Source: Patescibacteria group bacterium
GTDB taxonomy: Bacteria > Patescibacteriota > UBA1384 > GWA2-35-9 > JBASTP01
Assembly (NCBI GenBank): GCA_049274945.1
Contig: JBASTP010000002.1
Span: 81,216-145,215 of the forward strand
Length of the DNA stretch: 64,000 nt
Direction of reading: 5' to 3'
A model generated the notes under the pieces. The model was not told the DNA's origin and made no database searches. It saw only the letters and a program-made list of their open reading frames with translations. Positions 1 through 46,217 of this stretch are shown piece by piece; position 1 is the first letter of the stretch, and the number at the start of each line of letters is the position of its first letter. A program made the translations under genes and the position numbers.

Positions 1-433
1 AATCGAGTAATTGTTTTTTGAAGAGCTCATCTGTTCTTATGGCATTGATTATTTTCTTCAGTGAGATATCTAGAGAGCTGGTGTCAAAATTCAAGGACTG
101 ATACCTGGCAATAAATCCATAAGGATTTTCTCCATTAATGGCAAGGGGCATTATCTTTTTCCTTCTAGCAAAAGCAATTCCACATTCTTGATCAGTCCAG
201 TTGGATATTTTGTAATGGTCCGTGATAATGGGAATAAAAATATCGGTGCTATCTAGATGTCGCAAAATTACCTCTTGCCACTCATGAGAGGGAATAATAT
301 CTTCATGTGCTAAAAATATCTCGATGCCGTAACTTTCTAGACCGGACTTTATACGCCCGGCCAATTCCTTATCTTTAGTTGAATAGCTTAAAAATATTCT
401 AATAGTGCTAGGTACATTTCCAATAGTTTCCAT
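1..433 (-). CDS. TIR-domain protein, N-terminal ~144 aa; C-terminus lies beyond the window start
   Basis: Reverse-complement translation from ATG at 433 is open to position 1: METIGNVPSTIRIFLSYSTKDKELAGRIKSGLESYGIEIFLAHEDIIPSHEWQEVILRHLDSTDIFIPIITDHYKISNWTDQECGIAFARRKKIMPLAING... This matches the TIR_2 pattern (FLSYS...D, E-rich alphaC, W...E...A). Very AT-rich (~32% GC) compared with its neighbours. Absent from the ORF track because it has no in-window stop. Confidence 0.6.
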   Translation of the reverse strand, partial: METIGNVPSTIRIFLSYSTKDKELAGRIKSGLESYGIEIFLAHEDIIPSHEWQEVILRHLDSTDIFIPIITDHYKISNWTDQECGIAFARRKKIMPLAINGENPYGFIARYQSLNFDTSSLDISLKKIINAIRTDELFKKQLLD

Positions 434-434
434 G

Positions 435-505
435 CGGGGACGGAGGGGATCGAACCCCCGACTAGGGTTTTGGAGACCCTTGTGATACCACTTCACCACA
501 TCCCC
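435..505 (-). tRNA. tRNA-Trp (anticodon CCA)
   Basis: Reverse complement GGGGATGTGGTGAAGTGGTATCACAAGGGTCTCCAAAACCCTAGTCGGGGGTTCGATCCCCTCCGTCCCCG folds as a cloverleaf: 7-bp acceptor, anticodon loop CUCCAAA, T-loop TTCGATC. Confidence 0.85.
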
Positions 506-534
506 ATTACCGCCTAACGGCGGAAAACTAAATT

Positions 535-705
535 TTATTTTTTGCTCTCTTTATGCTCGGTGTGTTTGCGGCACTTGCGGCAAAACTTGGTAATCTCAAA
601 CTTCTTTTTAGCCTCGATCACCCCCTTCGACTTGCGCGAGGTGTAGTTGGTGTTGCCGCACACCGTGCAACGCAAGGCCATCAATTCTTTTTTGCTTTTT
701 GCCAT
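535..705 (-). CDS. rpmG: 50S ribosomal protein L33
   Basis: 56-aa ORF MAKSKKELMALRCTVCGNTNYTSRKSKGVIEAKKKFEITKFCRKCRKHTEHKESKK with the L33 CxxC...CxxC zinc ribbon. Below the 60-aa threshold of the ORF track. Confidence 0.85.
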   Translation of the reverse strand: MAKSKKELMALRCTVCGNTNYTSRKSKGVIEAKKKFEITKFCRKCRKHTEHKESKK

Positions 706-766
706 GTTATATTATTCCTTGTTTACTTACTGTGCTTGCCACGCGAAGCTCCAAAGGAGCGAAGTG

Positions 767-841
767 TGGAGCCGAGAGCGGGAATCGGACCCGCGGCCTT
801 TTGCTTACCATGCAAATGCTCTGCCACTGAGCTACCTCGGC
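767..841 (-). tRNA. tRNA-Thr (anticodon GGU), CCA encoded
   Basis: Reverse complement GCCGAGGTAGCTCAGTGGCAGAGCATTTGCATGGTAAGCAAAAGGCCGCGGGTCCGATTCCCGCTCTCGGCTCCA; anticodon loop AUGGUAA. The T-loop reads TCCGATT (C at position 55). Confidence 0.8.
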
Positions 842-1419
842 ATTAAACTAAATAGTAAATCTCGAAATTTTTTATTATGAAAGTAAACTGTCAAAACCCC
901 GTACTCACTTTTTTTCCGATATGTTCCCTTGGCCCTAGAAGGTGTAATAACAATTTTTTTGTGAAATTGGCTTCTCGGAACGTTTAAAACCTTTAACCAA
1001 TAATTTAAAACCGCCTCTGGATCAAGGTCATTAAAGATTTGCAGTCCAAATCTCAAATGATTCCTCTCAATTCTAAAGATTTTTACCAGAAAATCAATGA
1101 ATGTGTTAATTAATAAAGGATCAGAATTGCCCAATCGTATGGTGGTTTTATAAGTTTTTGCTCCTTCGCCCCAATATAAACCAATACCTAAACCCAACAA
1201 TTGCGCCTCTTCGAGAGTAGTGGGTTGTGTAAATAAGAAAGGATCTCCATCGGGATTATTCAATAGATATATCGCGTCGCTAATTGAACGTCTCTTAACC
1301 TGACGCTTCTCCATCCAATAGGCGACCTTGTGTAAAGAGCAATTCAGAAGAACAGCAATTTGTTGCATGGATTTCCCTTGCTTTAAATAGAAATCTTGGA
1401 GCACCTCCTTGGTAATCAT
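832..1419 (-). CDS. Free-standing protein with an N-terminal HTH and a single LAGLIDADG-like motif (homing-endonuclease-like)
   Basis: 195-aa ORF with a sigma-region-4-like HTH (SMQQIAVLLNCSLHKVAYWMEK) and the motif LLGLGIGLYWGEGAK...IRLGNSDPLLINTFIDFLVKIF, which resembles a LAGLIDADG helix plus downstream core. AT-rich. Its 3' end overlaps tRNA-Thr by 10 nt. Sits between tRNA-Tyr and tRNA-Thr. Confidence 0.45.
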   Translation of the reverse strand: MITKEVLQDFYLKQGKSMQQIAVLLNCSLHKVAYWMEKRQVKRRSISDAIYLLNNPDGDPFLFTQPTTLEEAQLLGLGIGLYWGEGAKTYKTTIRLGNSDPLLINTFIDFLVKIFRIERNHLRFGLQIFNDLDPEAVLNYWLKVLNVPRSQFHKKIVITPSRAKGTYRKKSEYGVLTVYFHNKKFRDLLFSLMPR

Positions 1420-1737
1420 AGTTCTATCATAACAGGCTTATGACGAGGGGTAAAGTAAATCCAAGCTAGTTTACAGGTCTACCATACAGTTCAGTCGGAA
1501 CCCCGACTTTGTGTAAGAGCTAATGGGCGAAATTAACCTAAATAGAAAATTTCTTATGGGTGGACGTTGATAAATCCTAATACCTTCTTTACTGTTAAAC
1601 TCAAATAGTCTTCCTGTAAAATCATCAGCCTTGAGCGGTTTTTTCAAATGTTTTTCAAGATCCAGCTCAGGAGGAAAACCCTGCTCTCTTGTGAGCTGCA
1701 ACGTATCATTGATTTCAATTAAACTTCCCATAATTTG

Positions 1738-1821
1738 TGCTGGGGGAGGGATTCGAACCCCCGAAGGCGTTGAGCCACGACGTTTACAGCGTCGCCTCGT
1801 TGTCCACTTGAGTACCCCAGC
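1738..1821 (-). tRNA. tRNA-Tyr (anticodon GUA), long variable arm
   Basis: Reverse complement GCTGGGGTACTCAAGTGGACAACGAGGCGACGCTGTAAACGTCGTGGCTCAACGCCTTCGGGGGTTCGAATCCCTCCCCCAGCA. Perfect 7-bp acceptor stem, anticodon loop CUGUAAA, A73 discriminator. Confidence 0.85.
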
Positions 1822-1913: not shown

Positions 1914-2195
1914 ATGAAACACCTGGTGAGAACCCAAATCAGTCTCCCGCAAGACCTGAAAGAGAAGATCACCCGCGAGGCGCGCCAGCGCAATATCAGC
2001 ATGGCGGAATACCTGCGCCAGGCAGCTGCCGCGTATGAGCGGAAAACGAAACTTACCCAAACCATGCGCCGGAAAATCGCCAACGAATTAAAAGGCAGCA
2101 TCAACCCAAAAACCGGCTGGGGATCAGTTGAACAGGTGAAGGAGTGGCTGCGGCGAGAACGCAATTTATCAGATGCCCGTCTTACTGGACTCTAA
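1914..2195 (+). CDS. Ribbon-helix-helix antitoxin (VapB/CopG-like)
   Basis: N-terminal RHH signature TQISLPQDLKEKITREARQRNISMAEYLRQA. Overlaps the downstream PIN gene by 23 nt. Confidence 0.7.
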   Translation: MKHLVRTQISLPQDLKEKITREARQRNISMAEYLRQAAAAYERKTKLTQTMRRKIANELKGSINPKTGWGSVEQVKEWLRRERNLSDARLTGL

Positions 2196-2553
2196 CATCT
2201 TGATCTATTATCTCCAGGACCAGCAACCATATGCTGACGCTGTAGAACAGTGGATTCAACAAGGCACCGTTGCCATTTCCGTTATCAGCATCGCCGAATA
2301 TCTATCGAAACCGCCTTTGGAGGGCACTGCCCCGCTCGAGAAAACCTTGTCGATCGTCGATGTGGTACCGGTTACCATTGAAATCGCAAAAACGGCCGGC
2401 GAGCTGCGGCATCGCCTGATTCGCAAACGCACTCGAGTCGCACTGATTGATTGCCTAATCGCGGCGACCGCCATTACCCGAGATTACCAAATTGCCACTG
2501 CTGATCGAAAAGGGTTCCCGTTCAAAGAACTCAAATTTGCGAAGTTCAAATAA
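2173..2553 (+). CDS. vapC: PIN-domain toxin VapC
   Basis: MPVLLDSNILIYYL...ALIDCLIAATA carries the conserved PIN acidic residues. Classic VapBC arrangement with the upstream antitoxin. Confidence 0.85.
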   Translation: MPVLLDSNILIYYLQDQQPYADAVEQWIQQGTVAISVISIAEYLSKPPLEGTAPLEKTLSIVDVVPVTIEIAKTAGELRHRLIRKRTRVALIDCLIAATAITRDYQIATADRKGFPFKELKFAKFK

Positions 2554-2555
2554 TA

Positions 2556-3068
2556 TCAACAACTTACTGTAACGGAAGGATCCAATGATTTACATGAAGG
2601 AGGGCTAGTCAAGACATCTTTCAAGGGACCCTGGCAACTATTGAAACCATTGGTAGTTGCCTTATTGACTGCAGTTTCGAAATCGAGCTTGTTGTCGTAG
2701 TCGCACTGCATTACTTTGCCAAGCCAGGCGGCGTTAGGGTTCTTAATGAATTGAGACTTTACGTTACAACCATGCTCACTTGGGCCAATAATCTCATATT
2801 GATAAGTCACGGTACCCACACTTAATGCCGCGAGATCTACACTGGGAGTATATCGAGTCGGCAGACACTGTTGAAATCGTTCGTTTATGCACTTTTTGGC
2901 AGGTTCCTCACGTTCTGGATATTCGAGGTTGGGGCTTCCGCAGTCCGCCACAGTGGTGGTCTTGCCTGCCAAAATTTGCCAAGCCACAGCTAAGATTAAG
3001 AGTAATGCCACAATAATTACGCTAGTCAAGAAACCGTTGGAAAGCCAAATCGATTCTTTATTAGTCAT
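2556..3068 (-). CDS. Hypothetical membrane-anchored or secreted Cys-rich protein
   Basis: 170-aa ORF with an N-terminal hydrophobic segment and at least 10 Cys. No recognisable family. Start ATG abuts the tRNA-Thr 3' end. Confidence 0.5.
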   Translation of the reverse strand: MTNKESIWLSNGFLTSVIIVALLLILAVAWQILAGKTTTVADCGSPNLEYPEREEPAKKCINERFQQCLPTRYTPSVDLAALSVGTVTYQYEIIGPSEHGCNVKSQFIKNPNAAWLGKVMQCDYDNKLDFETAVNKATTNGFNSCQGPLKDVLTSPPSCKSLDPSVTVSC

Positions 3069-3069
3069 G

Positions 3070-3141
3070 AGCCGAGGAGAGGATTTGAACCTCCGACCCG
3101 CGCTTTACAAAAGCGCCGCTCTACCACTGAGCTACCTCGGC
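3070..3141 (-). tRNA. tRNA-Thr (anticodon UGU)
   Basis: Reverse complement GCCGAGGTAGCTCAGTGGTAGAGCGGCGCTTTTGTAAAGCGCGGGTCGGAGGTTCAAATCCTCTCCTCGGCT; anticodon loop UUUGUAA. Confidence 0.8.
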
Positions 3142-3412: not shown

Positions 3413-3910
3413 TTACCCCTCATGCAACTTATCGAGCATTGCCTTGTAGCGGTCGTTGGTTGAATCGAGCGACATTGCCTGTTTGAGCGCGGCTTCGGCC
3501 TTGCGCTTGTTACCCAGGCCCAAGTAAGCCATCGCCAAATTGTAGTGGCGCGCCGCCACCTGGCTATCGAAGCGTAGCACCGTGAGAAACGCATCACGGG
3601 CGTCTTTGTAGTTCTTCCGCTCAAGGTAAATAATGCCGAGTCTGTTGTATACCTTAGGTAGATCGGGTTTCGCGGCGGCGATTTTTAGGTAGTAGGCCTC
3701 GGCGGTGTCGTACTCGCGTGATTTGAAGGCCTGCTCTGCGCGAGCCAGCAACTCTTCCACAGAATTGGAATCGGTAACAGTGAGTGGTTTAGGAGTGTTG
3801 GAATCGGGCAAAACGCTCGTACTCCGGCCGATCGTGGTAAACGGCAAACGCTTCATGAGAATCACGAAGATTAAGCCAGCAACAAGGAGGGTAATAATTT
3901 CGAATGCCAT
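3413..3910 (-). CDS. TPR-repeat protein with an N-terminal transmembrane anchor
   Basis: MAFEIITLLVAGLIFVIL..., then TPR-like repeats (AEAYYLKIAAAKPDLPKVYNRLGIIYLERKNYKDARDAFLTVL...). Confidence 0.6.
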   Translation of the reverse strand: MAFEIITLLVAGLIFVILMKRLPFTTIGRSTSVLPDSNTPKPLTVTDSNSVEELLARAEQAFKSREYDTAEAYYLKIAAAKPDLPKVYNRLGIIYLERKNYKDARDAFLTVLRFDSQVAARHYNLAMAYLGLGNKRKAEAALKQAMSLDSTNDRYKAMLDKLHEG

Positions 3911-43164: not shown

Positions 43165-44169
43165 TTAACTCTTAAAGACTTTCTCGCGCTCTTCTTGATA
43201 ATTTGGATCAAAAGTAATTTTCGTAGCGGTGACTAAAAACACTGGAATATCATTGGGGAGTTTATCAAGATCCAAAGCGCCCATTCTTTCTAAATCCTGT
43301 CTCTCAAGGCGTTTTTTAACTATACCCTCAAACCTTACGGCACGTTTATTCGTATTAACATTCATAAGTCCTGTTGTCTCCTGACTTCTATTAAAAATAA
43401 ACTCTTCGTCAACTGGAATATTAAAGATGACACAAGATTGCATCTCTTTTTTAGAGGCTTCTCCTCCGAGGTAGAATAAAATTGGTCTTTGAGATGCATA
43501 TACCCCCTCATCCCAAGCGTTAGCCACGCCTGGAATAAGCATAAAATCAGAACCATCAGCGACCTTATCTGATTCAATACTGCTTACGTGAAAATATGAA
43601 GTATGCTCTTTGATTTGATGTTCAATCTGTTCATAAACTATTCGTTGTGCCCGCATCTCCTTAAGATTATCACGTCCCATTTTAATCATACCACTTACAC
43701 TATCCAGAATTGCCCATCGCTCGTTTGGTTCAGTGGTCTCTCTCAGCCCCTGTAATTTACCTATCTCTTCATCCAACCAAGCCAAAATCATCCGATAATC
43801 TCGCATAGGCAACGGTTCGTGATTTTTATGCAGTTTTGTCATCATTTCTGATAAGAAATCCTGCTCATTTTGAGATTCTGAACGCAGATGCTCAAGAACG
43901 ACTAAAGTTTTTTCAGACCCCGATTCTTTGACTATACAATCGACAACTAGATCGGGTGATTTAAGAGTTAATTCGACCATTTTTTTTGGATTACTGGAAC
44001 CAAATTCAATAACTTGATGAGCTAATTCACGGGCCTTTTGCAGCCTTGGTTTATTGGTCGCATTCAATTCGTCAATAAGTTGTGATTCTAACATTACGGT
44101 GTTGCCACCGTTGCTTTGTTCTAAGGAGGTATTTTCTGGTTTAGGTTGTTCTATTTTTTCTTCATCCAT
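43165..44169 (-). CDS. Hypothetical protein (334 aa) in an AT-rich islet
   Basis: GC visibly lower (about 38%) than the flanking core genes. No recognised domain. Confidence 0.5.
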   Translation of the reverse strand: MDEEKIEQPKPENTSLEQSNGGNTVMLESQLIDELNATNKPRLQKARELAHQVIEFGSSNPKKMVELTLKSPDLVVDCIVKESGSEKTLVVLEHLRSESQNEQDFLSEMMTKLHKNHEPLPMRDYRMILAWLDEEIGKLQGLRETTEPNERWAILDSVSGMIKMGRDNLKEMRAQRIVYEQIEHQIKEHTSYFHVSSIESDKVADGSDFMLIPGVANAWDEGVYASQRPILFYLGGEASKKEMQSCVIFNIPVDEEFIFNRSQETTGLMNVNTNKRAVRFEGIVKKRLERQDLERMGALDLDKLPNDIPVFLVTATKITFDPNYQEEREKVFKS

Positions 44170-44195
44170 TTGTCGTGATTACTATTTATAAAGAT

Positions 44196-45524
44196 TTACT
44201 CGATCTTTTGAGATAAGTAGTTCTTAAGGTCTTTAATCGTCACCCGCTGCTGTTTCATGGAATCGCGGTCGCGGACGGTAACCGATTGGTCTTTGAGCGT
44301 GTCAAAATCAACCGTAATGCAAAAAGGCGTTCCGATTTCGTCTTGACGGCGGTAGCGCCGGCCAATTGAACCGGAATCATCGTACTCAACATGCCATTCT
44401 TTTTTAAGATCATGGTAAATGTCCTGAGAAACTTCAGGGAGCTTATCTTTATTCACCAGGGGAAATACCGCCGCCTTGATCGGCGCAACCCGAGGATTAA
44501 AATGTAATACTTCCTCAACTTCTTTCACTGCCTTGGTGGTTACGGTCCGGCCACCCTCGACCGCTTCATAACTTTCGAGCATGAACATTAAAAGATTGCG
44601 GTCAAGTCCAGTCGAAGTTTCGATAATATAGGGAGTCAACCTCTTACCAGTTTTTTCATCGAATACCGAAAGATCTTTACCCGAAAATTTGCTGTGGCGG
44701 GACAAATCCCAATCTCCCCTATTGTGGATGCCCTCGAGTTCCTTCCAACCAAACGGAAACTTATATTCAATATCGATTGCCCGTTTGGCGTAGTGGGCAA
44801 GCTCGTCTTTGCCATGTTCATGAAATCTTAGATGATCTTTGTTAATGCCGAGCGCCAGGTAATAATCCATGCGTTGCTTTTGCCAATATGCAAACCATGT
44901 ATCAGCTTCAGTTGGATGAATGAAAAACTGCATTTCCATTTGTTCAAACTCGCGCAACCGAAATAAAAAGTGTCCAATCGTAATTTCATTACGGAATGCT
45001 TTACCTACTTGGGCGATACCAAATGGCAGTGACTTTCTTGTTGACTCTTTTACGTTGACGAAGTTGACATAAATCCCTTGAGCAGTTTCACCACGCAAAT
45101 ATGTTTTGGTCTTTGATCCTTCTACCGTACCGAGTCTGGTTTCCACAAGTAAATTGAATTGCTTGGGTGCCATGAATTCGTGGATGTGATGATCAGTTTC
45201 GTCTTTTTTCGGCGCCATATCTTGCCGGAAACGCTGGTGGCATTTTTTGCACTCAACGAGCGGGTCGGTAAAACCGGCGCCGGTATGCCCCGATGCCTCC
45301 CATACGCTCGGCGCCATGAGAATGTTGCTGTCAATGAGCACTATGTCATCTCGTTCGCGCGTCATAGTATGAATCCAGATGTCTTTAAGATTATTTTTTA
45401 GCTCAACACCAATTGGACCGTAATCATACACGCCGCTCAACCCACCGTAAATTTCAGAGGAGGGGAAAATAAACCCCCGGCGCTTGGCGAGCGAGACGAT
45501 TTGTTCCATTAAATCTTGTGGCAT
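44196..45524 (-). CDS. glyQS: Glycyl-tRNA synthetase (dimeric GlyQS type)
   Basis: IVSLAKRRGFIFPSSEIYGGLSGVYDYGPIGVELKNN, FRNEI, GLDR and SIGRRYRRQDEIGTPF are GlyRS hallmarks. Confidence 0.9.
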   Translation of the reverse strand: MPQDLMEQIVSLAKRRGFIFPSSEIYGGLSGVYDYGPIGVELKNNLKDIWIHTMTRERDDIVLIDSNILMAPSVWEASGHTGAGFTDPLVECKKCHQRFRQDMAPKKDETDHHIHEFMAPKQFNLLVETRLGTVEGSKTKTYLRGETAQGIYVNFVNVKESTRKSLPFGIAQVGKAFRNEITIGHFLFRLREFEQMEMQFFIHPTEADTWFAYWQKQRMDYYLALGINKDHLRFHEHGKDELAHYAKRAIDIEYKFPFGWKELEGIHNRGDWDLSRHSKFSGKDLSVFDEKTGKRLTPYIIETSTGLDRNLLMFMLESYEAVEGGRTVTTKAVKEVEEVLHFNPRVAPIKAAVFPLVNKDKLPEVSQDIYHDLKKEWHVEYDDSGSIGRRYRRQDEIGTPFCITVDFDTLKDQSVTVRDRDSMKQQRVTIKDLKNYLSQKIE

Positions 45525-45534
45525 GATTTAATTA

Positions 45535-45975
45535 TTAGACAAATTGAGCATTCAGTTTATCCCCTAACCAATCAAAATCTCGTTTGTTACGAGACACAAG
45601 AATTAAGTTTTGATTCATTGCAGTGGCAGCAATGATACTATCGGGTATAAATTTATATCGGAGTCGTTGCTCTTTTAACCTTCTATCACGAATTATTTGA
45701 GCCGCCGCCTCAATGTGCCAATCAACGCCAATAGTGGTAACAAAATTCTGTATCTCTAAAATTTTTGCCCGTTTTTCGGGATAGTTTGCACTATCGTGCA
45801 TCAGTAATTCAAGGATTGTAATCTTTGATATTCGGGCATCGGGATGGAGATCGTGAGGAAAATATTGATGAAATACATCACTAATGCTGCGCCATCCACG
45901 TAAATGATCAATAATCAGATCAGTATCAATGAGATATTGGGACACAACTAATCCTTTGGAATACCCTTTTCCCAA
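45535..45975 (-). CDS. vapC: PIN-domain toxin VapC
   Basis: YLIDTDLIIDHL...DSIIAATA. Lies downstream of, and overlapping, an RHH gene. Confidence 0.7.
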   Translation of the reverse strand: MGKGYSKGLVVSQYLIDTDLIIDHLRGWRSISDVFHQYFPHDLHPDARISKITILELLMHDSANYPEKRAKILEIQNFVTTIGVDWHIEAAAQIIRDRRLKEQRLRYKFIPDSIIAATAMNQNLILVSRNKRDFDWLGDKLNAQFV

Positions 45976-46217
45976 TTGCCTCTAATAGAACGAACATATT
46001 CAACACCGTCCGTAAAATTCCACTTGTTTGTGCTCGCTTGATCCAAAAATTTTGATAATCTATCAAGATTTCCTCTGGATTTTGATTGATTTGTTTTTGC
46101 CAATTTATCCACAACAAGCTCTCGAATAAAACCGGACCGAGTCTCAAAATCGCGTTTTGCGGCTTCATCAACATCTTTCAATAACTTGTCAGGAATAGAA
46201 ATCATCACCTTTGCCAT
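45948..46217 (-). CDS. Ribbon-helix-helix antitoxin (VapB/CopG-like)
   Basis: MAKVMISIPDKLLKDVDEAAKRDFETRSGFIRELV is an RHH signature. Confidence 0.65.
   Translation of the reverse strand: MAKVMISIPDKLLKDVDEAAKRDFETRSGFIRELVVDKLAKTNQSKSRGNLDRLSKFLDQASTNKWNFTDGVEYVRSIRGNWEKGIPKD

Follow-up and report, generated by a model that had tools for sequence, protein, structure and literature searches.

A TIR-domain gene and a putative free-standing LAGLIDADG-type nuclease gene as independent accessory insertions in a tRNA/rpmG cluster of a Patescibacteria genome

The tRNA/rpmG cluster at the start of a 64,000-nucleotide (nt) stretch of a Patescibacteria group bacterium genome (GCA_049274945.1, contig JBASTP010000002.1, positions 81,216 to 145,215; hereafter the window) holds independent accessory insertions. 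Two of them are of particular interest: a gene with an N-terminal TIR domain, which follows tRNA-Trp, and an open reading frame (ORF), ORF195, which lies between tRNA-Tyr and tRNA-Thr(GGU) and encodes a helix-turn-helix (HTH) and a predicted LAGLIDADG-fold domain. We lean, with some reserve, towards a joint reading in which the TIR protein is a single-gene NAD+-cleaving effector and ORF195 a free-standing homing endonuclease, each representing an independent accessory insertion. ORF195 is the more informative of the two. The most conserved tRNA cluster of Patescibacteria harbours a nuclease-type gene in hundreds of genomes, and this gene overlaps a tRNA and is unannotated in public records.

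ORF195 consists of an N-terminal HTH (residues ~1-55) and a single LAGLIDADG-fold domain (~65-195), with the motif LLGLGIGLYWGEG containing Glu85. In the AlphaFold2 (AF2) model, built from 120 sequences (pLDDT 91.2), three short helices make up the HTH, helix 69-85 carries the motif, and strands alternating with helices follow. The modelled domain has the LAGLIDADG core fold. Fold comparison of the model returned I-Tsp061I (score 7.3), I-DmoI (7.0), E-DreI (6.8), PI-PfuI (6.4), I-CvuI and I-CeuI (6.1), I-Vdi141I (5.8), I-MsoI (5.5-5.7) and I-CreI (5.4), as well as the LAGLIDADG-derived protein WhiA (7.3 and 6.8), while the N-terminus was matched by LuxR/sigma-region-4 HTH domains. The motif helix ends in W83-G84-E85-G86, which places an acidic residue at its C-terminal end. 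This Glu85, together with Gly76, 78, 80, 84 and 86 and W83, is invariant in 120 homologs. An HTH followed by one LAGLIDADG-type domain had been proposed in the first-pass annotation of this DNA, and the model and fold comparison bear this out. The link to LAGLIDADG is thus a predicted one at the level of fold, not of sequence profile: searches with NCBIfam, PDB phmmer and PDB profiles gave no LAGLIDADG match, and the library matches of ORF195, weak ones to HTH_23 and GerE, cover the N-terminal HTH only. Residues 3-49 also match two PHROG families annotated as 'HNH endonuclease' (E=4e-7). Since each protein carries one LAGLIDADG domain, we infer from the model that ORF195 would work as a homodimer.

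The ORF195 family is large: a search at E<=1e-3 gave 865 proteins. Of these, the top 120 homologs are all 177-250 amino acids (aa) long and 53-64% identical. Apart from an HTH in some of them, no Pfam domain is recognised, and their record names are 'hypothetical' or 'helix-turn-helix domain-containing'; ORF195 itself is locus WAP74_00825 in the NCBI contig. A literature search found no paper describing the family.

The position of ORF195 is closely tied to one tRNA gene. The ORF ends in ATG-CCG-AGG-TAG and runs into GCCGAGGTAGCTCAG; its last 10 nt are the first 10 nt of tRNA-Thr(GGU), and TAG corresponds to tRNA positions 8-10. The overlap between stop codon and tRNA-Thr that had been pointed out earlier is therefore real, except that it involves the 5' end of the tRNA and not the 3' end. 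We compared 84 ORF195 loci: the window, three homologs on long contigs and the 80 best metagenomic loci. TAG falls at positions 8-10 of the tRNA-Thr gene in 51 of the 84, and in most others the tRNA-Thr 5' end lies 0-25 nt past the stop or the ORF extends 21 nt inside the tRNA. The same site is held by the family in 51-75 of the 84 loci. A place shortly before tRNA-Thr is common to nearly all 84, and the tRNA-Thr is almost always the GGU gene. tRNA-Thr(UGU) and/or tRNA-Tyr are found upstream, and rpmG and tRNA-Trp usually downstream. A subgroup lies in a tRNA-Asp/Met/Thr(CGU) neighbourhood (L121, L123, L130, L132, L136, L157 and L160), where several loci have another tRNA-like 5' end (GCCGAYGTAGCTCAG) directly past the stop. 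In IMG/VR, eight ORF195 relatives (L170-L177; 25-40% identity, mostly over the LAGLIDADG domain) are carried by phage contigs of 98-497 kb. Two of the eight are near-duplicates, and in all seven distinct phage contigs checked the gene lies inside a tRNA array.

In at least 15 ORF195 loci, ARAGORN misses tRNA-Thr(GGU). The 5' half reads GCC....TAGCTCAG...CCATGGT and is followed by an insertion of ~200-260 nt, past which comes the matching 3' half (AAGGAGT...acceptor complement). The break lies after the anticodon, at position 36/37. The loci are as follows:

Intron-split tRNA-Thr(GGU): L085 (4257-4530), L086, L087, L089, L090, L100, L103, L111, L113, L116, L126, L141, L146, L154 and L161

An Rfam scan of this insertion found no Intron_gpI (RF00028) match at the gathering threshold or at E<=1. 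PMC13011429 describes introns of tRNA-Thr(GGU) at 36/37 in Patescibacteria that are missed by RF00028. With the same insertion point and the same Rfam miss, the insertion in these relatives corresponds to the Patescibacteria 36/37 group I intron; the window differs in that its tRNA-Thr(GGU) is intronless. In that paper, homing endonuclease genes were sought inside the introns only and most introns were judged to be without them; in the passages searched, a free-standing LAGLIDADG gene upstream is not mentioned. Intron state follows the ORF195 tree only loosely: in 48 of 67 cases the nearest neighbour agrees in state, on an intron list that is partly hand-made.

The following features make up the cluster. 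Coordinates are those of the window in plus-strand order, from low to high; the reading direction of the cluster genes is from high to low:

1..433, minus strand: TIR gene fragment, the first 144 codons of a 242-aa protein (ORF; continues past the window edge)
434..505, minus strand: tRNA-Trp (CCA) (ARAGORN; Rfam tRNA 65 bits)
535..705, minus strand: rpmG, ribosomal protein L33 of the Zn-ribbon type (ORF; 95% identical to Ca. Berkelbacteria L33, P0135)
767..841, minus strand: tRNA-Thr (GGU), intronless (ARAGORN; Rfam 66.5 bits)
832..1419, minus strand: ORF195, HTH plus single predicted LAGLIDADG-fold domain (ORF; probable free-standing homing endonuclease, judged from the model)
1471..1731, minus strand: ORF88, AT-rich open frame between tRNA-Tyr and ORF195 (GC 37.8%)
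1737..1821, minus strand: tRNA-Tyr (GUA) (ARAGORN)
1914..2553, plus strand: RHH antitoxin (1914-2195) and PIN toxin (2173-2553) (Pfam RHH_1 E=5e-8, PIN E=6e-17)
2556..3068, minus strand: ORF170, Cys-rich, with a hydrophobic segment at the N-terminus (ORF)
3069..3141, minus strand: tRNA-Thr (UGU) (ARAGORN)
3413..3910, minus strand: TPR-protein gene, the left synteny anchor common to L165 (blastn 84% over 435 nt to L165 1-432)

Along the minus strand the order is tRNA-Thr(UGU), ORF170, the RHH/PIN pair (on the opposite strand), tRNA-Tyr, ORF88, ORF195, tRNA-Thr(GGU), rpmG, tRNA-Trp and the TIR gene. Window positions 1-1768 are matched at 100% identity by an independent 2-kb Logan contig (L001), assembled from a sequencing run, which adds 259 nt beyond the window; therefore, the arrangement is not an artefact of a single assembly record. 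L001 was reached by a look-up of the ORF195 protein, whereas an exact look-up of P0001, the full-length TIR protein, gave no match. No second copy of either the TIR gene or ORF195 was found when the window was scanned for paralogs.

The closest available relative, Ca. Berkelbacteria GCA_016196985.1 (L165), has an L33 95% identical at the protein level, and its rpmG and TPR genes are 90% and 84% identical at the nucleotide level. Its cluster is compact: TPR gene, tRNA-Thr(UGU), 64 nt, tRNA-Tyr, 3 nt, tRNA-Thr(GGU), rpmG, tRNA-Trp, 6 nt and a Pterin_4a gene, without ORF170, RHH/PIN, ORF88, ORF195 or the TIR gene. Because this compact cluster has neither of them, the TIR gene and ORF195 are both accessory in this Berkelbacteria-like lineage, as had been proposed before. 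For ORF195 the term insertion holds in that sense, with the qualification that it is not an ad hoc arrival: it belongs to a large family at a fixed site 5' of tRNA-Thr(GGU). A second relative, L166 (L33 84% identical), also has no ORF195, and the corresponding spacer of 160 nt contains repeated GCCGAGATAGC pseudo-5'-ends. Between its tRNA-Trp and Pterin_4a genes, L166 carries two ORFs of 107 and 191 aa (positions 649-1544) that have no Pfam match and are unrelated to the TIR gene. The tRNA-Trp/Pterin_4a gap looks like a hot spot for insertions. Given that L165 is compact and free of inserts and that L166 has a spacer and other ORFs, every inter-tRNA gap and the tRNA-Trp 3' flank are variable among near relatives.

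Partial tRNA duplications are seen in the spacers of both relatives. At 88-247 in L166 they take the form of repeated 'CAGTTG(ATAAnAT)GCCGAGATAGC' pseudo-5'-ends, which resemble the ORF195/tRNA junction, and at 520-700 in L165 the 5' and 3' parts of tRNA-Thr(UGU) are duplicated. These may be scars of past insertions or deletions. The possibility that tRNA-Thr(GGU) was imported together with ORF195 was considered and set aside: tRNA identities are too uniform, L165 ranking 18th of 38 for Thr(GGU) and 17th for Thr(UGU). The first 24 nt of tRNA-Thr(GGU) (818-841) and of tRNA-Thr(UGU) (3118-3141) match with one mismatch.

According to the first-pass annotation, tRNA-Trp and rpmG are followed in most bacteria by secE, nusG and rplK. 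This order does occur, in distant L33 contigs (L167 and L168), but not in this lineage. SecE or NusG is encoded in the first genes past tRNA-Trp in none of 17 Patescibacteria loci, nusG, secE and rplK were not found past tRNA-Trp in the relatives, and the Pterin_4a gene comes after tRNA-Trp in the nearest relatives. Displacement of secE/nusG by the TIR gene is therefore rejected for this lineage.

Base composition sets the TIR gene and ORF195 apart. The guanine-plus-cytosine (GC) content is 36.3% in the TIR fragment, 36.6% in ORF195 and 37.8% in ORF88, against a window mean of 49.6%, while rpmG, the TPR gene and holB have 47-53%. With a standard deviation of 5.1 for 432-nt windows, only 2.4% of which fall below 38%, the TIR fragment and ORF195 lie ~2.6 standard deviations from the mean. 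The AT-richness claimed earlier for these two ORFs thus stands, though not the figures given for it (32% against 52%).

In our interpretation, ORF195 is a site-specific element of LAGLIDADG type that has long resided at the tRNA-Thr locus and, going by the modelled fold, is most likely a free-standing homing endonuclease that has been lost and regained. The gene is present or absent at one and the same site: it occupies the window, and its place is taken by a 3-nt spacer in L165 and by the 160-nt spacer in L166. In each of the 37 loci that span 5 kb or more, the homolog is lower in GC than its flanks, on average by 6.8 points; with a difference of 13 points, the window copy comes close to the extreme. 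Such an enzyme would cut those alleles of the tRNA-Tyr/tRNA-Thr junction, or of tRNA-Thr, that are without the ORF195 gene, and repair after the cut would copy the gene into the empty allele. It may also act jointly with a neighbouring ORF-less intron.

Several observations weigh against this interpretation. ORF195 is as conserved as the adjoining L33 (mean 57% vs 50%), and the two diverge in parallel (Mantel Spearman r=0.57, p<=0.0005, 36 loci); this co-variation is compatible with a long vertical residence and perhaps with a function in the host. All of the 80 best metagenomic copies are intact, where decay would be expected of a purely selfish gene, although the search itself favours intact copies. 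No Pfam LAGLIDADG family (LAGLIDADG_1/2/3) matches ORF195 at E<=1, and hhalign of the ORF195 profile with a manually typed I-CreI sequence gave a probability of 0.08. Finally, the tRNA-Thr(GGU) of the window is intronless and stands beside ORF195; because of this, any target of the enzyme must differ from the resident allele.

A domesticated function is therefore a serious alternative, which we consider possible but on the whole improbable. ORF195 would then be a vertically inherited, occasionally lost LAGLIDADG-HTH protein, either a regulator of the tRNA/rpmG operon or a maturase-like helper of the intron. WhiA, as a LAGLIDADG-derived transcription factor, provides a parallel, and the very large family, uniform in length (194-198 aa) at 55-61% identity, the conservation equal to that of L33 and co-varying with it, and the fixed place beside tRNA-Thr(GGU) are all in keeping with such a role. 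So are the GC content of the ORF, which partly follows that of the host (28-49% vs 37-56%), and the intron in the adjoining tRNA in at least 15 loci. However, WhiA has two degenerate LAGLIDADG domains, without their catalytic residues, and a C-terminal HTH. ORF195 does not share this combination: it has one domain and an N-terminal HTH, its predicted metal-binding Glu85 and Gly-rich LAGLIDADG helix are invariant, and the match to WhiA is at fold level only. Moreover, the two closest relatives do without the gene, leaving a spacer of 3 nt or a scarred one of 160 nt, and the window copy is 13 GC points under its genome. The subgroup at the other tRNA cluster and the relatives in phage tRNA arrays indicate mobility. 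A pure maturase role is further opposed by the retention of the gene beside intronless tRNAs, the window included.

Less probable still, and doubtful in our judgement, is a more ambitious version of the homing endonuclease interpretation, in which the ORF195 family would be phylum-wide free-standing LAGLIDADG homing endonucleases that mobilise ORF-less tRNA-Thr introns in trans. Expression might in that case be linked to tRNA processing, as the stop codon would be lost on cleavage by RNase P. If true, this would account for the spread of endonuclease-less tRNA introns in Patescibacteria, a point left open in the 2026 survey (PMC13011429).

Free-standing homing endonucleases at tRNA genes have precedents. 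T4 SegB is encoded by a free-standing homing endonuclease gene in a tRNA cluster (PMC2330249), and ORF195 resembles it as a free-standing nuclease-type gene between tRNA genes that is present or absent among relatives. Collaborative homing has been described for F-CphI and mobE (PMC6083498, PMC2790892); the likeness here lies in the at least 15 ORF195 loci with an ORF-less group I intron in the adjoining tRNA-Thr(GGU). The type of enzyme differs, SegB being GIY-YIG, F-CphI EndoVII-like and mobE HNH, whereas ORF195 is LAGLIDADG by its predicted fold. The host differs too, ORF195 residing in a cellular genome and not in a phage. The stop/tRNA overlap is a conserved trait of ORF195, whose cleavage and homing activities are putative. 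With I-CreI, I-CeuI, I-MsoI and I-Vdi141I, ORF195 shares one domain of the alpha-beta-beta-alpha-beta-beta-alpha type with the Gly-rich helix first. The motif helix ends with the invariant acidic residue in both, as GEG in ORF195 and GDG in the single-motif LAGLIDADG endonucleases. In contrast to the I-CreI-type enzymes, ORF195 is not encoded by an intron or intein, has an extra N-terminal HTH and lies between bacterial tRNA genes.

If ORF195 is an active homing endonuclease, it would represent a rare free-standing case fixed at a cellular tRNA locus and a candidate driver of tRNA-intron mobility in the phylum, and new meganuclease specificities might be obtained from it. If it has been domesticated, it would be a lineage-specific factor of a tRNA/ribosomal-protein operon in organisms with minimal genomes.

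The TIR gene starts at ATG 433 and is open to position 1, so that, as first reported, it continues past the window edge after 144 codons. The translation begins METIGNVPSTIRIFLSYSTKDK. The N-terminal TIR domain recognised by eye in the first-pass annotation is confirmed by Pfam: PF13676 (TIR_2) covers residues 13-118 with a score of 70 bits, against a cut-off of 28, and the full-length protein, P0001, scores 68.5 bits. The domain has the flavodoxin-like TIR fold, and other flavodoxin-like families (nucleoside deoxyribosyltransferase, DUF4062) remained below threshold in the Pfam scan. Glu83, within WTDQEC, aligns with the Glu of 'WCLMEL' in the flax L6 TIR, which is the best sequence match in PDB. 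Across 13 family members this Glu does not vary, and the same is true of FLSYS, FLAHED and W79. The conserved Glu of NADase-type TIRs is thus present, at a position that we take to be that of the catalytic residue as discussed in the plant and SARM1 TIR literature. The structural matches include the bacterial TIR NADase AbTIR, and to judge from sequence the protein is probably an NAD+ cleaver.

The rest of the protein is an all-helical C-terminal domain of ~110 aa, which has no Pfam family and no match to STING or SAVED. Searched alone against 1.8 billion representatives, this domain returned 39 proteins, and each of the longer ones that was rescanned has a TIR domain directly upstream. On these sequences the helical domain seems exclusive to TIR fusions. 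Longer variants of ~335-355 aa (P0140, P0141, P0143, P0155, P0158, P0161 and P0168; L002, L003, L009, L010, L012 and L016) have an extra N-terminal region of ~115 aa ahead of the TIR and helical domains, and in one 495-aa protein the helical domain is combined with a TIR of the CAP12 type. In species-representative genomes the best match to the TIR protein is 51% identical, and 267 family loci were confirmed in CPR bacteria, DPANN and other archaea, Acidobacteriota, Bacteroidota, Chloroflexota, Nitrospirota, Proteobacteria and others. In 93% of 73 loci the gene is poorer in GC than the sequence on either side of it. Adjacency to tRNA genes is not a family trait, since a tRNA lies within 1 kb in only 2 of 83 loci.

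For the neighbourhood of the family we inspected the best 80 of the 267 loci and called neighbours in 78. Clustering of neighbours within four genes on either side gave a largest cluster of six loci, and the recurrent ones are components of type I, IIG and III restriction-modification (R-M) systems. Among the 146 immediate neighbours, Pfam and PADLOC identified four Methylase_S, three ResIII, two MmeI and two Eco57I, and no SIR2, SLOG, Macro, STING, SAVED or cyclase family. R-M genes occur at ~10-15% of the loci. Since no neighbour recurs in the 78 loci and the gene is low in GC relative to its flanks, we conclude that the TIR and helical domains form a self-contained, horizontally moving module which sometimes lands in R-M islands and needs no fixed partner. 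The TIR protein is most likely a single-gene TIR effector, and the simplest function to infer for it is NAD+ cleavage in defence or abortive infection. The helical domain would sense a trigger or oligomerise the protein, and the TIR domain would then cleave NAD+ through Glu83, so that growth of the infected cell stops or a signal is made. Three points tell against such a role for a lone gene: the sequence past window position 1 is covered for 259 nt only, so that a partner in this genome is possible; the defence models of PADLOC and NCBIfam all stay under threshold; and the association of the family with defence islands is weak, at the ~10-15% of loci just mentioned. Of the earlier suggestion of a horizontally acquired defence gene, the accessory status and low GC content hold up and the defence function is supported in part.

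The same annotation placed partners of a Thoeris, TIR-STING or Pycsar-like system just outside the window. That the TIR protein belongs to a multi-gene system (Thoeris-, CBASS/Pycsar- or retron-like) with a partner past window position 1 is unlikely, even though the gene continues past the edge, with its downstream side out of view, and there are weak partial matches to three relevant models. These matches fall far under the cut-offs: PADLOC ThsB models match in part only (E=4e-8), NCBIfam ThcB4 gives 48 bits against 220 and CAP12-type TIR 16 bits against 24.7. The ThsB-type profile PF08937 has no match to P0001 and reaches 13.5 bits in P0005 against a cut-off of 21.2. None of the 78 loci has the adjoining ThsA (SIR2, or Macro/TM with SLOG) that defines Thoeris, and neither a fused nucleotide sensor nor, among their neighbours, the cyclase of CBASS/Pycsar was found. 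The neighbour clusters, of at most six loci, are all R-M-like, and synteny with L165 and L166 predicts Pterin_4a as the next gene. A Thoeris- or CBASS-type system with hidden partners is therefore improbable. Least probable of all is a non-immune role, either as a toxin/addiction module or as an effector that an episymbiotic Patescibacterium would use on the cell that hosts it, by analogy with the TIR virulence factors through which pathogens deplete NAD+. The lone gene with its catalytic Glu intact, the toxin-antitoxin pairs inserted into the same cluster and the bacterial TIR NADases such as AbTIR among the structural matches would suit this role, but there is no signal peptide, no secretion-linked neighbour and no recurrent adjoining antitoxin-like small ORF, and the same family occurs in free-living phyla and archaea.

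Alongside Thoeris ThsB, the nearest known systems to the single-gene effector are the stand-alone bacterial TIR effectors SpbK (of B. subtilis SPbeta), AbTIR and BcTIR. The P0001 family differs from all of these in its TIR-only helical C-terminal domain, and from ThsB also in the missing ThsA neighbour and in scoring under the cut-offs of the ThsB_TIR, ThcB4 and CAP12 models. The TIR gene by itself is a routine addition to the bacterial TIR proteins. Combined with the TIR-exclusive helical domain, it represents a recurrent two-domain architecture that has no name in current defence-system catalogues.

A third insertion lies between tRNA-Thr(UGU) and tRNA-Tyr (1914-3068) and consists of ORF170 and the RHH/PIN toxin-antitoxin pair; the same gap is 64 nt in L165. 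The toxin-antitoxin pair has a native GC content (50-53%). ORF170 has no family match in the library scans and no match among the fetched loci. ORF88 was considered as a gene and rejected: it has no Pfam, NCBIfam, PHROG or PADLOC match, and tblastn in the fetched loci finds only the identical L001. It is probably a spacer brought along with the insertion rather than a gene.

The start codons of the TIR gene, ORF88 and ORF170 lie 1-6 nt past the 3' ends of tRNA-Trp, tRNA-Tyr and tRNA-Thr(UGU), respectively (junctions at 431-435, 1729-1737 and 3066-3070). The TIR ATG (433-431) is 1-2 nt past tRNA-Trp, and ORF170 starts 1 nt past tRNA-Thr(UGU). Similar starts are found in the relatives, where Pterin_4a begins 6 nt past tRNA-Trp in L165 and rpmG directly past tRNA-Thr in L166. 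As three ORF starts adjoin tRNA 3' ends and ORF195 ends within a tRNA, this suggests that tRNA processing sets the mRNA ends at the cluster and that leaderless mRNAs are generated by tRNA 3' processing. No terminator-like site was seen between tRNA-Tyr and the window start. Promoter-like hexamers, which are consensus matches only, occur before tRNA-Tyr (1830-1858), 7 nt ahead of the ATG of ORF195 (1426-1454) and within the 3' end of ORF195, before tRNA-Thr (867-894).

Elsewhere in the window, a second AT-rich stretch (43165-46217; 36-41% GC) contains a 334-aa ORF of no assigned function, together with a glycyl-tRNA synthetase-like gene and a PIN/RHH-like pair, both recognised by eye from the translations. 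More low-GC patches are found at ~53.4-55, 56.5 and 59.0-59.3 kb.

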